Sequence record: DRR723986_750
DNA: 52,021 nucleotides
Direction: 5' to 3' (one strand)
This document shows, piece after piece, positions 85-44,620 of this stretch. The notes below the pieces were generated by a model that was not told the origin of the DNA, made no database searches, and saw nothing but the letters and a program-made list of their open reading frames with translations. Made by a program: the position numbers and the translations under genes. Each line of letters starts with the position of its first letter. Positions within the stretch are counted from its first letter, which is position 1.

Positions 85-939
85 TCAAAGTGCACCTGGC
101 GATACGTAACTGCCTTTTATGTCCAGGGCAGGTTCGTCCTTGCGGAACAATGTCCGCCCCGGAAATTCCTTCTTGTAGAATGCTTCGATATCTGCGGCTG
201 CAGGGCCGGCATACTCTATCCGTCCGCTCGGGAAGAATATGTCCAGGTCGTCATCCTTGTGCTCCGTCGCATAGGTTTCCTGCGATCCGTGCAAGACCAT
301 GGCAATGCCGAGCCGGTTGTTGACGAAATGCTGCACGTCAAAAAACTTTGGCGAGCGCGTGTGCTTCTGACCCAGGCGATCCTCTCTGACGCGGATCAGC
401 TGGTCAGGTGCGTCCATATCGACAATGCCGTAGAGATCGAAGTCTCCGTGCACACACTTGGCCGCGGTGATAAGCGAACTGGACGAGAACTTTACACAGC
501 CGAAATAGGGGTCTTCTGGATTGCGTTCGACGAAATAAACGCCTCCACGCGGAATGTAGGTCAGTTTCCGTTGGTGTTCGAAGGTTGCCATTTCAGGTCG
601 CAACTGTTTTTGAAATTCCCTCCATTCCTCGATCACCTTTGCCATCTTGCTCGCCTTGAAGGCCTTTTCGCCAACGATTTTTGGATCGACTACCAGGCCC
701 GCAAAGTTCTTGCGCTGCGCGTCCGGACACTTGCTTCCGACGGGCTTAACATCGAAATCCGCAGTCTTTGCCTTGCAATCCAGACGCTTGGGCGTGGCGT
801 AGGGTTCGCCAACGTGCTCAAGGGATGCTGTGTTTGTCCGTCGTACCAGAATCGCGACGTTGTAGAGCCGGGCTGCGGACTGAAATACGCCGACATGCTT
901 GGCTCTCATATGTTTGAGAATATCTGCTCTTCCGGCCAT
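85..939 (-). CDS. Edema factor/CyaA/ExoY-like (class II) nucleotidyl cyclase domain protein, 284 aa, no signal peptide
   Basis: Start moved to ATG 939 (GGAG RBS upstream). Motifs in EF order: ILVRRTN..YATPKRLDCKAKTAD (EF: ILFRPVN..VATKGLNVHGKSSD), VHGDFDLYGI (LTADYDLFAL), MVLHGSQE (VVNHGTEQ). Confidence 0.72.
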   Translation of the reverse strand: MAGRADILKHMRAKHVGVFQSAARLYNVAILVRRTNTASLEHVGEPYATPKRLDCKAKTADFDVKPVGSKCPDAQRKNFAGLVVDPKIVGEKAFKASKMAKVIEEWREFQKQLRPEMATFEHQRKLTYIPRGGVYFVERNPEDPYFGCVKFSSSSLITAAKCVHGDFDLYGIVDMDAPDQLIRVREDRLGQKHTRSPKFFDVQHFVNNRLGIAMVLHGSQETYATEHKDDDLDIFFPSGRIEYAGPAAADIEAFYKKEFPGRTLFRKDEPALDIKGSYVSPGAL

Positions 940-1030
940 AATGTGTTCTCCGCTGAGTGCAGGCTTCAACCGGGCCTGCGAAAACGCGCATTTGCAATGA
1001 AACCAGATTACCAGACAGTCTCCCAAACTC

Positions 1031-1046
1031 GGTGATTCAAGTCACA
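1031..1046 (-). promoter_or_regulatory. CRP-type box upstream of the EF-like cyclase gene
   Basis: Minus strand TGTGA-CTTGAA-TCACC (1 mismatch); -10-like TAATCT at 1010-1005, 20 nt downstream. Confidence 0.65.
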
Positions 1047-1294
1047 AAGCGTTTTTTCAGGTCGAAAAACCCGGTCCGTTTTCAAGTTGTGGCCGGCAAA
1101 AAATCCGCTACCACCTTCCCTAACGTCCTTTCGTGTGAACGTAACTCAAAAAATGGCAGCAACTGTCTGTTGAAAAGTGGTTTTTAGAAAAAGGATTGGC
1201 TATAGTCTGCAACTGATTTTAGTGGGGTCATCAACGGACCGTTGCGGTCCGGATTCAGTTGGTTGCAGGGACAGCTTCTTCTATTTGACGTTCC

Positions 1295-1310
1295 TGTGAC
1301 GCGTATTACA
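1295..1310 (+). promoter_or_regulatory. CRP-type box upstream of caspase-like gene 1
   Basis: TGTGA-CGCGTA-TTACA (1 mismatch), about 105 nt before ATG 1416. Confidence 0.6.
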
Positions 1311-41810: not shown

Positions 41811-41830
41811 CTGAATATCTCCCTCAACGA

Positions 41831-44548
41831 TTAAAACAGATCATATCTGGGACGGTTCTGTTCCCACTGATGCTTTACCAGTGCAATCAGGGCCTCATCG
41901 CCTTCGGAAGGCGCCCGTCCAGAGGCTTCAAAGAAGTCGGCCAGGGCTTCACGGGTTTTCCGTCCCGGCTGCCCGTCAACCGGTCCTGGATCGAAACCGA
42001 GATCGGTCAGGGTCTGTTGCAACACCTTTGCCTTGAGGTTTTTCCGCGCATCGCCGAGAGCGGTCTTTGCCTGCTCGGCAGCCTGCGAAGACGGTTCAAC
42101 AGCCACAGCCATGGCAAGCATGCGAACACGGTCCTGGCCTGCGGCATCGCCATCTTGCTGGCCAAGCATCCACGCGGTGTTGAATGCACCCCAGGGATCT
42201 CCACGCTGGGCACTTTCACGGAACCAGCGAGTTGCCTCTTCCGAGTTTTTCTCAACACCCTGGCCATTGTAGTAAAGCAGTCCGATGGCCGTGCCTGCGG
42301 CAGGGTGCCCGCCTTCATGTGCTTTCATGAACCAGCCAAGTGCTGCTTCATAGTCCTGCGGCACACCTTTACCGTCGCGGTACAGCGTCCCCATGTTCAG
42401 GTAGCCATAAATGTCGTTCCGCGATGCCGAGCGATTGTAGTAATAAACGGCGCGGTCGATGTTTTCTTCCACGTGCTGGCCATTCAGGTAGAAGCCACCA
42501 ATGGCATTGAACGAGAACGTGTGGCCTGCCTCCACCGACTGCAGCAGTTTGTCCAGACCGTCCTTTTCGTTCTGGGCCGTGCCTTCGCCCTTGATCTCGG
42601 CCATACCAAGCGAATGCAGAGCATAGGCGTCTCCCCGCTCCGCAGCCTTGCGGTATAGGTCGACAGCCTTCTCGCGGTCACGATCGATCCCGGCACCCAG
42701 GAAATACATGCGCCCCAGCACCTGGCCGGCACGAACATGTCCCATCTGGTAGGCCTGTTCAAAGTAACCGACAGCCTGTTGCAGGTTACCGGCGGCAAAG
42801 GCTCCACGGCCGCGCTGGAAGACGAACCGGCCGATCTCCGGGTAGGTAGCCATCGCTTCGGCGCAGGCCGTATCCACAGCCGCCGCATCCAGATCGTTGG
42901 CGAGCCGTCCTTCCGTAACCGCCTGCAAATCGAAAGGCTGGGTTGCCAGGCGATCGCATTGCGTTACACGGGGTTGAACGATCTGCGTGATGGTTCTTGC
43001 AGGCGTTCCTTCGACAGCCGGCAATTCCAGAGCAAATTTCCGCGCTTCACTTTCGCTGCCGATCTGCGGACGGACGGTCAACGTCGCGAGCGCAGAAACA
43101 GGAAAACGGTCGCCGGCCTGCAGCAAGCGGTTGTCGGAAGCAAGCTGCAGGTCCGTATCGACAGAGACAACCTTCAGCCAATCGCTTGTTGCCGGCAGAT
43201 CCTCGACGGGCGCATCCGGATAGACGTTTACGGGGCCGGTGCCGATATCAGCTTCTACAGCTCCCTTCGAGGCCGTGTTGCCCAGCCATGACAGGAGAGC
43301 TTCAAGCCGCTTTGTGCGGTTTTCTTCCACCTGCTCGTTTTGCACCGGCGTTTCGGCCTGTGCGACCGTAATTGAGGCGATCGCGGATGCAGAACCACCC
43401 CATTGGTCCTCTACCTCGTAGGAGATCAGTTCCACGTCGCCGGGTTTCGAGCCTTCCGGAAAGAACTCGAGACTGGCAAGCTCTGCCGCATCTATCACGT
43501 CCCCCTCAGCAACGGCCCGGCCTCCCGGCAGCTTCAAGGTACCTTTTTCAGGGAGCAAGGTGAGCTTCGCCTTCAACGTTCCACCTTCCGGCTGAACCGG
43601 TTCGGGGATGCTGATCGGAACGGATTCAGCCGATGCAGATACACTGACCCTGTGATGGGCAGTCACGATCGGAGCCGGTTTGGGCGGTACGAAATAGAAG
43701 CTGGTGACGAGCGTTGAATCCTCATATGGGATCTGCTGGCCGCCGGTCTTGCGAACCACGTCATCGCGAACCTTGGTCATCAGGTCCTTGATCTCGAGCG
43801 CCGGATCAAGAGCATTTTCGACCACAGAAGAGGTGAACGGGCTCATCGGCCCCTTACCGTCGTAGGCAACCTGACCAGGACGCGTGGCATAGGAGATGAA
43901 TGTGCCGAGCTTGTTCGGAATCCGGCGCAGCCCTCTGGTCTTTCCGAGCGAATATTCTTCCTCGCCCCAAAACAGGCTTGCGATTTCGAACGGGTTGTCC
44001 CGGCAGGCGTCAAGCATGACGATCTGCAGGCTGGAAGCGGCCTTCATGTAGTCCAGCAGATGGGACACCTTGAGGCTTTCGAATTCCAGGTCGTATTGAG
44101 AGGACAGTTTGGCGTCGACAGGAAGAATGAAATTGGATTCGCCAACCTGAAGCGCATGACCGGAATAGTAGAACAGCGCCGTGTCGCCGTCATTCAGTTC
44201 CCGCAGAAACCGGCGTACGACCTGCTCCAGATCCTTCTTGTTGAGGTCCGTGCCGATCGTCACATCAAAATCGGCCTCCCGAAGGATCCTGGCGATTTCC
44301 GTCGTGTCCGTAACGGGATTTTCCAGCGGGGTCACATACTGGTATTCCTGGTTGCCGATGACCAGCGCAACCCTGCGCCCGTCCTCGGTCTGTGCCATCG
44401 CCTGGGCGGAAGGCAATGCAAGAGCAGCACCCACCGGCAGGCTCAAAAGGCCCATCCTGACAGCTTTCCTCAACCGGCCAACAGGCTTGGTGGAGGTCAT
44501 AGATTTGCCAACTCGTGTGGCAAGAGGTCGATAATCCCGATTCTGCAT
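41831..44548 (-). CDS. Exported caspase-like peptidase C14 with Sel1 repeats and peptidoglycan-binding domain
   Basis: RVALVIGNQEY, YYSGHA, LDACRDNPF; several Sel1 repeats (e.g. GTLYRDGKGVPQDYEAALGWF); GFDPGPVDGQPGRKTREAL. Confidence 0.9.
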   Translation of the reverse strand: MQNRDYRPLATRVGKSMTSTKPVGRLRKAVRMGLLSLPVGAALALPSAQAMAQTEDGRRVALVIGNQEYQYVTPLENPVTDTTEIARILREADFDVTIGTDLNKKDLEQVVRRFLRELNDGDTALFYYSGHALQVGESNFILPVDAKLSSQYDLEFESLKVSHLLDYMKAASSLQIVMLDACRDNPFEIASLFWGEEEYSLGKTRGLRRIPNKLGTFISYATRPGQVAYDGKGPMSPFTSSVVENALDPALEIKDLMTKVRDDVVRKTGGQQIPYEDSTLVTSFYFVPPKPAPIVTAHHRVSVSASAESVPISIPEPVQPEGGTLKAKLTLLPEKGTLKLPGGRAVAEGDVIDAAELASLEFFPEGSKPGDVELISYEVEDQWGGSASAIASITVAQAETPVQNEQVEENRTKRLEALLSWLGNTASKGAVEADIGTGPVNVYPDAPVEDLPATSDWLKVVSVDTDLQLASDNRLLQAGDRFPVSALATLTVRPQIGSESEARKFALELPAVEGTPARTITQIVQPRVTQCDRLATQPFDLQAVTEGRLANDLDAAAVDTACAEAMATYPEIGRFVFQRGRGAFAAGNLQQAVGYFEQAYQMGHVRAGQVLGRMYFLGAGIDRDREKAVDLYRKAAERGDAYALHSLGMAEIKGEGTAQNEKDGLDKLLQSVEAGHTFSFNAIGGFYLNGQHVEENIDRAVYYYNRSASRNDIYGYLNMGTLYRDGKGVPQDYEAALGWFMKAHEGGHPAAGTAIGLLYYNGQGVEKNSEEATRWFRESAQRGDPWGAFNTAWMLGQQDGDAAGQDRVRMLAMAVAVEPSSQAAEQAKTALGDARKNLKAKVLQQTLTDLGFDPGPVDGQPGRKTREALADFFEASGRAPSEGDEALIALVKHQWEQNRPRYDLF

Positions 44549-44604
44549 AACGTCCTCAGCGCTTAAATCCGCGTGTAACTATCGCGCTAGAGCTGCTGCC
44601 TGTC

Positions 44605-44620
44605 TGTGATGGAACTCACA
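44605..44620. promoter_or_regulatory. Perfect CRP consensus box upstream of the caspase-Sel1 operon
   Basis: TGTGA-TGGAAC-TCACA; GATAGT 21 nt downstream on the minus strand; 56 nt before ATG 44548. Confidence 0.72.

Follow-up and report, generated by a model that had tools for sequence, protein, structure and literature searches.

In the window analysed here, a stretch of 52,021 nucleotides from record DRR723986_750 of the marine bacterium Roseibium, a type VI secretion system (T6SS) cluster carries an ExbB/ExbD/TonB-like motor of its own and lies among exported caspase-like proteases and two cyclases. Gene content was read by Pfam scans of the long open reading frames (ORFs). The best-supported new element is a conserved T6SS accessory module, which comprises ExbB, two ExbD proteins, a TonB-like anchor, a DUF1036 protein, the exported protein unk143, which belongs to no named family, and a long M23 peptidase. 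For the locus as a whole we see about an even chance that it is a composite of three layers rather than one dedicated circuit. The T6SS block of about 34 kb, reaching from the first ExbD (ExbD_a) to the M23 peptidase, is the first layer. The second is an older envelope module made of exported caspases (casp1, with casp2 and casp3 as variable members) and an operon of unk226 and a CHASE2 cyclase. The third is a small gene for an EF/ExoY-fold cyclase adjoining a tRNA. The best-supported link between the layers, judged from promoter motifs, is that a CRP-like regulator binding a cyclic nucleoside monophosphate (cNMP) may control the T6SS sheath operon together with the caspases and the cyclase operon. 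An original prediction had listed a T6SS, three C14 proteases, a CHASE2 cyclase, ExbB with two ExbD, a TonB-like protein, PpkA and an M23 peptidase; all of these are present, by Pfam in every case except the TonB-like protein.

The accessory module was traced in seven other genera, all of them found via T6SS-linked probes, so that rates of co-occurrence are biased; the plasmid gene tables are also incomplete. A T6SS and a DUF1036 gene were located beside the probe gene in seven of seven genera viewed, ExbB/ExbD in four and a caspase in two. Searching plasmid records with the C-terminal domain of PpkA (tblastn) returned Ser/Thr kinases in Mesorhizobium and Phyllobacterium (7 records). In the T6SS clusters of these two genera the kinase gene is accompanied by PP2C, DUF1036, long M23 and OmpA genes, and in Mesorhizobium also by DUF6931; the long M23 protein is homologous beyond its M23 domain (34% over 531 amino acids; 42% over 285 amino acids). 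Both clusters include a caspase, 55% identical to casp1 in Mesorhizobium and 39% in Phyllobacterium, and in neither did we find ExbBD or a cyclase.

The part of the long M23 peptidase outside the M23 domain matched 22 plasmid records, and five further genera were viewed. In Paracoccus, Sagittula and Rhodovulum, unk143, ExbB, ExbD, DUF1036 and the long M23 peptidase were detected by tblastn inside T6SS clusters, with unk143 in the same position at 35–38% identity, and the Leisingera cluster holds the same accessory set by annotation. These four Rhodobacterales genera thus share unk143, ExbB, ExbD, ExbD and a gene in the position of the TonB-like anchor, along with DUF1036 and the long M23 peptidase. 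The motif SxxxH is present in two of the three anchor-position proteins read (AxxxH in Rhodovulum), and their C-terminus resembles the domain shared by anchor and PpkA described below. Thioclava has a T6SS, DUF1036 and an M23 gene of the same kind; its 12-kb flank holds no ExbB. Since unk143, ExbB, two ExbD, a TonB-like protein, DUF1036 and M23 recur in the T6SS clusters of four genera, we regard them as real T6SS accessories. In the window we count an OmpA-family protein with this set. The expectation that all neighbouring genes travel with the T6SS held for the Exb/TonB-like set, DUF1036 and M23 and, in Mesorhizobium and Phyllobacterium, for a casp1-type caspase; outside Roseibium we found no T6SS accompanied by the CHASE2 cyclase, unk226, casp2/casp3 or the EF-like gene. 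In a literature search that left supplementary material aside we found no account of this set, nor one that treats ExbBD/TonB-like, DUF1036 or caspase genes as accessories of a T6SS.

Two side observations concern these relatives. The anchor-position genes of Rhodovulum (106–1338) and Leisingera (5501–6724), encoding 407–410 amino acids, are annotated as 'serine/threonine protein kinase'; the Rhodovulum protein reads as a transmembrane anchor plus the shared C-terminal domain, and the kinase label on both genes probably stems from the PpkA-like C-terminus. At 296–341 kb of the Mesorhizobium ciceri plasmid pMESCI01, TagH, TssL and TssM occur as a second set, accompanied by PP2C, kinase, DUF1036, M23, OmpA and caspases; this set directly adjoins a complete T6SS cluster with its own TssL, TssM, TagF and TssJ.

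The TonB-like anchor (577 amino acids) consists of an N-terminal transmembrane helix with SxxxH, a long linker rich in Pro, Val and Thr, and a C-terminal domain of about 220 amino acids. The transmembrane SxxxH is found in the window and in at least 27 of 29 orthologs. The protein gave no Pfam match even at E<=10. The claim that it shares a domain with PpkA was borne out, as its C-terminal 220 or so amino acids match the C-terminus of PpkA (BLASTP E 9e-18). Two Cys residues are invariant in this shared domain, for which a predicted model (pLDDT 93) shows an alpha/beta part and an Ig-like sandwich. Relatives of the domain number 836 at E<=1e-3 among 1.84 billion representatives; 78 distant ones were scanned, and 37 of these are Ser/Thr kinases, one carries IcmF_C, one a cyclase domain and two a TIR domain. 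When a narrow peptide pattern of the domain was searched over genome contigs, the 32 records returned were, where named, all Roseibium, Labrenzia or Stappia-named.

The module resembles the TonB-ExbB-ExbD and TolA-TolQ-TolR systems in its ExbB and ExbD families and in having an anchor with a transmembrane helix, SxxxH and a Pro-rich linker, encoded 3' of exbD and here overlapping it. It differs from them in that the anchor has no TonB_C domain and has its C-terminal domain in common with a Ser/Thr kinase, and in its location inside a T6SS cluster; Pfam scans of the block revealed no gene for a TonB-dependent receptor. The sole TonB_C gene of the 99%-identical genome G001, a canonical TonB, is located elsewhere in that genome. 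In the long M23 peptidase we read the motifs HxxxD and HxH by eye, while unk143 gave no Pfam match.

All twelve T6SS core components searched (TssA, TssB, TssC, Hcp, TssE, TssF, TssG, ClpV, VgrG, TssK, TssL and TssM) gave Pfam matches. TssJ (PF12790) was found neither in G001 at E<=0.01 nor among the window ORFs of at least 100 amino acids, and it is not annotated in the Paracoccus T6SS stretch viewed. The Mesorhizobium and Phyllobacterium clusters, both of which lack ExbBD, do have an annotated TssJ. This contrast between TssJ absence and ExbBD presence is small and suggestive only. The threonine-phosphorylation set is complete (Pkinase E 5e-41; PP2C_2 E 9.6e-15; FHA with T6SS_FHA_C; TagF_N E 4.9e-33). 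The system is of an alphaproteobacterial type and carries the PpkA, PppA, Fha and TagF switch. In the H1-T6SS of Pseudomonas aeruginosa this switch is operated by the TagQRST-PpkA-PppA-Fha1 pathway together with TagF. The window is similar in possessing PpkA, PppA, Fha and TagF and, upstream of the kinase, a set of accessory proteins that spans the envelope and includes an energy module. Unlike in P. aeruginosa, TagQ, TagR, TagS and TagT were not seen in the window, energy would be supplied by ExbB/ExbD with a TonB-like anchor and not by an ABC transporter, and the periplasmic domain of the kinase is a two-Cys domain without Pfam match that differs from the one described for P. aeruginosa PpkA.

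We compared the locus across 25 genomes of the genus, 11 of which were mapped in detail (five T6SS-positive, six T6SS-less). TssC is at least 89% identical in 13 of the 25, and the TonB-like anchor occurs in exactly those 13. Where present, the T6SS block is always at the same site. Gene order in the five mapped T6SS-positive genomes is identical to the window, and all 29 long species loci keep the order TssL to PpkA, ExbD and anchor, then ExbB, unk143 and DUF1036, then ExbD and casp1. In the six T6SS-less genomes casp1 directly adjoins the cyclase, behind which come unk226 and the housekeeping genes known from the window, and ExbD_a is absent. As the block is present or absent in one gap between converging genes, the unit gained or lost is the stretch of about 34 kb from ExbD_a to M23. 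Junction scars or repeats were not seen: homology between the T6SS-less gaps and the window ends at the casp1 stop codon (in one case some 65 bp further on) and begins again within the cyclase gene, and none aligns between. On two trees of 12 rows the presence of the T6SS requires at least two to three gains or losses, which makes repeated loss, or exchange through the flanks, likely. The cyclase has an ortholog (at least 62% identity, full length) in 20 genomes of the genus; seven of these 20 are without this T6SS, three of them without any TssC match. The casp2/casp3 pair is found in 5 of the 11 mapped genomes (four of five T6SS-positive, one of six T6SS-less). In G005, a T6SS-positive genome without the pair, M23 and ClpV are separated by about 4.6 kb of additional DNA (4015–8688 of its stretch) that the window does not have.

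Boxes of the consensus TGTGA-N6-TCACA were counted in the window. Allowing at most one mismatch we found 7 against 1.39 expected, a number reached in none of 100 shuffles, and six of the seven are intergenic by gene calls. The prediction that CRP-type boxes precede most units is upheld at this threshold, and throughout the genus the boxes recur at corresponding promoters. The box about 105 bp 5' of casp1 is kept in all 11 genomes and all 30 species loci compared, that 85–125 bp 5' of unk226 in 11 of 11 genomes, that of casp3 in all five genomes having casp3, and that of tssB in all five T6SS-positive genomes. Upstream of the EF-like gene a box is found at 15–201 bp in 15 of 24 species loci. 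Conserved boxes are present in each of the three layers. Two weaker boxes recur in the divergent region between vgrG and ompA; a site like 21952–21967 is present in five of the six T6SS-positive sequences compared (the window and four of five genomes). A site like the box at 34942–34957 was seen in G005 only.

Genome-wide, G001 (6.7 Mb) contains 9 perfect boxes against none for a control pattern, the casp3 box being one of them, and 75 boxes at no more than one mismatch against 48. The region of the window holds 7 of the 75, that is about 9% of the sites in 0.8% of the genome. Seven clear Crp/Fnr-family proteins are encoded in G001, two of which are CRP-like with cNMP-binding motifs and an RE..R recognition helix (RETVNR and RENVSR). 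A near-consensus box precedes the start of the gene of the RENVSR protein (G001:C1:1436902-1437661) by 58 bp, a position that would fit autoregulation; as to this gene, it is a core gene, 86–100% identical in 24 of the 25 genomes. The RETVNR gene adjoins a second CHASE2 cyclase of 638 amino acids, 24% identical to that of the window (G001:C1:1607000-1613000). In that region a perfect box lies about 180 bp past the stop codon and 205 bp upstream of an aminotransferase gene. Each genus genome gives 9–23 matches to the cyclase query, so that there is nothing to link the boxes with the local cyclase in particular. The shared boxes suggest, without proving it, a common cyclic-nucleotide control. 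Control of hcp and the T6SS by cAMP-CRP is reported for Vibrio cholerae (PMC2726435). Our case resembles it in having a CRP-type site before T6SS structural genes, and differs in the alphaproteobacterial host and in a regulator that is a CRP-like candidate known by sequence alone.

All three caspases have C14 matches (E 1.5e-44 for casp1, 1.4e-18 for casp2 and 2e-41 for casp3), and, on reading by eye, signal peptides and His/Cys dyads. The cyclase combines CHASE2 (E 4.4e-14) and Guanylate_cyc (E 4.6e-25) domains. Its operon partner unk226 has 91 relatives, all at least 52% identical, and the named ones are from Roseibium or Labrenzia except one 'Rhodobacterales bacterium'; it is not similar to the ORF upstream of the second CHASE2 cyclase of G001 (E 0.34). 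Caspases of the casp1 type occur on 138 plasmid records. OmpA neighbours the caspase in Tateyamaria and Bradyrhizobium, and in Tateyamaria DUF4384 and Sel1 do so as well. As a separate observation, a Tateyamaria omphalii plasmid groups at 1856–9457 a DUF4384 protein, OmpA, a casp1-type caspase (58% identical) and a 910-amino-acid Sel1-repeat protein without a T6SS, which echoes the casp1/casp2/casp3 domain set of the window. That casp1 is unrelated to the T6SS was considered and partly dropped, given the caspases inside the T6SS clusters of Mesorhizobium and Phyllobacterium.

In Sinorhizobium meliloti the cyclases CyaD1, CyaD2 and CyaK signal through the regulator Clr. Here, too, there is a class III cyclase with CHASE2 and a regulator of the CRP family, and in G001 the second CHASE2 cyclase has a CRP-like gene as its neighbour; unlike in that system, the Clr-type box TGTTN8AACA has no match in the window. 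We know of no link of CyaD/CyaK-Clr to caspases or a T6SS, and of no function for exported bacterial caspases. Fusions of caspase and CHASE2 are reported from cyanobacteria and from EACC2 systems (PMC3501461, PMC8195603). They share with our locus a functional association of caspase and CHASE2; they differ in that the genes of the window are separate, its caspases are exported and not cytoplasmic, and its CHASE2 output is a cyclase.

The EF-like ORF alone gave no Pfam, NCBIfam or PDB sequence match. It belongs to a family of 289 'hypothetical' proteins of about 270–285 amino acids, mostly from environmental alphaproteobacteria. A profile of 48 family sequences matched only anthrax EF (E 3.4e-4) and ExoY-type cyclases in the PDB. 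With an AlphaFold model (pLDDT 87), Foldseek ranks 1–24 were all EF/CyaA/ExoY (best E 7.8e-9, TM 0.55 on the query) and the first unrelated match had E 0.19. PF03497 did not match the window protein; it was found in 1 of 48 aligned relatives at E<=0.01 and as a precomputed domain in 3 of 120 relatives listed. The call of an EF-like cyclase therefore stands at the level of fold and family profile and fails at that of Pfam membership; the protein is a predicted class II cyclase-fold homolog with a matched catalytic-core fold. Its fold matches anthrax EF, Bordetella CyaA and ExoY alone, and an N-terminal catalytic-region motif aligns in the profile match. Unlike these toxins it has 284 amino acids, much shorter than their catalytic cores, and no secretion or activator-binding parts were recognised in it. 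A search of plasmid records for the protein gave no match. Within the genus, 9 full and 1 partial copies occur among the 13 T6SS-positive genomes and none in the 12 others. This association is not independent, because these genomes are kin.

The EF-like gene is positioned between the tRNA and casp1. ARAGORN detected no tRNA in the window. The predicted tRNA at the left end was recovered by comparison: bases 1–30 comprise the T-arm, acceptor stem and CCA, and the full tRNA-Glu(TTC) of G001 ends exactly there. A full tRNA adjoins casp1 in 11 other loci scanned. An Rfam search of the window gave no match.

From gene content, block structure, cross-genus conservation and the enrichment and conservation of the boxes we propose the following working model, every functional step of which is conditional. 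Driven by proton-motive force, the ExbB/ExbD motor would act on the TonB-like anchor, which could engage either the kinase directly or an envelope partner that anchor and kinase have in common. The anchor might in this way feed an envelope or cell-wall signal into PpkA and hence into firing, and the M23 and PG-binding proteins may remodel or anchor the wall at a machine without detectable TssJ. The layers would be joined transcriptionally through the core cNMP-binding CRP-like regulator, with the local cyclases as possible, non-exclusive nucleotide sources. In its full form, this would describe a TssJ-less alphaproteobacterial T6SS clade in which a dedicated ExbB/2xExbD/TonB-like motor, DUF1036, unk143 and M23 provide a new trans-envelope kinase input, drawn in Roseibium into a cNMP/CRP-like regulon with exported caspases and with CHASE2 and EF/ExoY-fold cyclases. 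We put it forward tentatively, as a possibility clearly below even chance.

Several observations weigh against the model. TonB_C (PF03544) is absent from the anchor, and SxxxH, taken as the TonB/TolA signature, is a motif and not the output of a tool. Fold searches with the shared C-terminal domain gave weak Ig-like similarities only (TM <=0.28) and no functional clue, and the domain was found in none of 400 other alphaproteobacterial genomes at E<=1e-6, where only 7 candidates per genome were scored. The M23 motifs, taken as catalytic, were likewise read by eye. Because the Phyllobacteriaceae clusters and the Thioclava flank are without ExbBD, the Exb module is not obligatory. The caspase/T6SS link is not general, as casp1-type contexts in Tateyamaria, Ensifer and Bradyrhizobium have no T6SS nearby, and in Mesorhizobium and Phyllobacterium it came through the T6SS-kinase probe and thus from a biased sample. 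On the regulatory side, the consensus is of the E. coli type, no enrichment is seen at <=2 mismatches (23 against 20.7 expected), and the RE..R rule is that of E. coli CRP.

Three other explanations have to be weighed. In one dedicated circuit the local CHASE2 cyclase would sense a periplasmic cue, perhaps a caspase product, cAMP would induce the whole locus including the cyclase gene itself, and PpkA would trigger assembly in parallel. The conserved boxes before the cyclase operon, casp1, casp3 and tssB agree with such a circuit, as does the local concentration of near-consensus sites, and the caspase-CHASE2 fusions of other bacteria (PMC3501461, PMC8195603) offer a parallel. The cyclase module, however, is kept in genomes without this T6SS, the viewed flanks of T6SS relatives in seven other genera hold no cyclase, many cyclase-query matches exist per genome, the putative regulator belongs to the core genes and has further sites outside this locus, and the Clr-type box is missing from the window. 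We consider this circuit unlikely. Of the single cAMP-wired envelope circuit originally predicted, the shared conserved boxes and the linkage of the Exb set, DUF1036 and M23 to the T6SS stand; the local cyclase is one possible source of the signal among others, and the cyclase module persists in genomes where this T6SS is lacking.

A second possibility is a neighbourhood accident, in which the T6SS block came to lie beside a caspase/cyclase module with which it has nothing to do, while the boxes are part of a wide regulon without special local meaning. Presence or absence of the block at a fixed intergenic site, the repeated gains or losses on both trees and a regulator kept in nearly all genomes regardless of the module all agree with this. 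It accounts poorly for the roughly 12-fold local density of near-consensus boxes, for their retention at four or more promoters of both layers and for the casp1-type caspase inside the T6SS clusters of two other genera; we hold it to be improbable, though slightly less so than the dedicated circuit. The ExbB/ExbD/TonB-like set might also be an ordinary uptake or Tol-like system riding along, or a structural outer-membrane tether replacing TssJ. A tether would suit the failure to find TssJ in G001 and in the Paracoccus annotation and its annotation in two clusters without ExbBD, and the genome has a canonical TonB at another place. The paralogy of the C-terminal domain with the sensor domain of the kinase, the fusion of the TonB-like gene into the ppkA operon in Roseibium and the lack of a TonB-dependent receptor gene in the block speak against uptake or tether, and we rate this explanation as doubtful as the dedicated circuit. 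The layered locus with a kinase input and a shared CRP-like regulon is the reading we prefer, at about an even chance.

The positions of all features are compiled in the table below. From the left, the window starts with the tRNA 3' end, an ORF of 284–313 amino acids depending on its start, casp1, ExbD_a, DUF1036, unk143 and ExbB. A single long operon on the minus strand comprises VgrG, DUF6931, Fha, TssK, TssL with OmpA, TssM, TagF, PppA, PpkA, ExbD_b and the TonB-like anchor. The plus strand carries OmpA, TssA, TssB, TssC, Hcp, TssE, TssF, TssG and ClpV. After ClpV follow M23, the CHASE2 class III cyclase preceded by unk226 (226 amino acids), casp2 and casp3, and the right flank holds genes for a GNAT protein, an ornithine cyclodeaminase-family protein, a Na/Ca exchanger and a branched-chain ABC transporter.

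Table. Features of the 52,021-nucleotide window, in order of position
Feature	Position	Strand	Basis or remark
tRNA-Glu(TTC) 3' end	1-30	+	cut by the window edge; full copy in G001
EF/CyaA/ExoY-fold (class II-like) cyclase homolog (predicted), 284 amino acids	85-939	-	readable to 1026; homologs begin at ATG 939
CRP-type box 5' of EF-like gene	1031-1046		1 mismatch
CRP-type box about 105 bp 5' of casp1	1295-1310		scan at <=1 mismatch; conserved
casp1, exported C14 caspase with PG_binding_1	1416-2981	+	Pfam E 1.5e-44
ExbD_a, left end of T6SS block	3111-3536	-	Pfam ExbD E 5.8e-16
DUF1036 periplasmic protein	3682-4140	+	Pfam E 7.6e-31
unk143, exported, no named family	4207-4638	+	no Pfam match; position kept 5' of ExbB
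ExbB (MotA/TolQ/ExbB family)	4674-5345	+	Pfam E 9.8e-27
TonB-like anchor	5337-7070	-	transmembrane helix with SxxxH, linker, PpkA-paralogous C-terminal domain
ExbD_b, overlaps start of TonB-like anchor	7067-7489	-	Pfam E 1.5e-10
PpkA (two-Cys periplasmic domain), PppA (PP2C), TagF	7529-10943	-	Pfam
TssM, TssL (DotU+OmpA), TssK, Fha/TagH, DUF6931, VgrG	10945-21894	-	Pfam
Weaker CRP-like box, vgrG/ompA divergent region	21952-21967		2 mismatches
OmpA-family protein, TssA	22115-24360	+	Pfam
CRP-type box about 145 bp 5' of tssB	24468-24483		scan at <=1 mismatch
TssB, TssC, Hcp, TssE, TssF, TssG, ClpV	24632-34497	+	Pfam
Near-consensus CRP-type box between converging genes	34942-34957		36 bp past M23 stop
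Long membrane-anchored M23 peptidase, right end of T6SS block	34993-36978	-	Pfam E 3.5e-31
unk226 (exported, genus-restricted) and CHASE2 class III cyclase, one operon	37091-39705	-	CHASE2+Guanylate_cyc 37091-39028
CRP-type box 5' of unk226-cyclase operon	39807-39822		scan at <=1 mismatch
casp2 (C14 + DUF4384)	39867-41492	-	Pfam
casp3 (C14 + Sel1 + PG_binding)	41831-44548	-	Pfam
Perfect CRP-type box between casp3 and GNAT gene	44605-44620		exact consensus
Housekeeping genes	44682 onward		Pfam scans
CRP-type box overlapping Na/Ca-exchanger start codon by ORF call	47858-47873		scan at <=1 mismatch

Two observations were made in the right flank. At 47992–48783 a plus-strand ORF (261 amino acids, no Pfam match) overlaps a minus-strand ORF at 48004–48783; in relatives, the opposite strand at this place matches the adjacent ABC ATPase gene product with 27% identity by tblastn, and the true gene at 48004–48783 is probably the minus-strand one, a putative second ABC ATPase. 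At 49547–51715 of the window and in relatives, two ABC permease genes fall into two identity classes (about 64–74% and 85–95%). These classes do not agree with the tree of caspase and cyclase, a sign that alleles in the flank may have been replaced.

To our knowledge, the trigger of T6SS firing is understood only in a few model species. If the proposed model is true, a motor of the Exb/TonB-like kind bearing the kinase's own sensor domain would be a new and directly testable energy-coupled input to the T6SS phosphorylation switch, and the set occurs in culturable marine bacteria (Roseibium, Sagittula, Paracoccus, Leisingera). Exported caspases are tied here to a sensor cyclase by conserved promoter boxes, and in other genera to the T6SS by position. 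The small family with a predicted EF/ExoY fold, found in non-pathogens, could reveal a role of this toxin fold as an endogenous enzyme.

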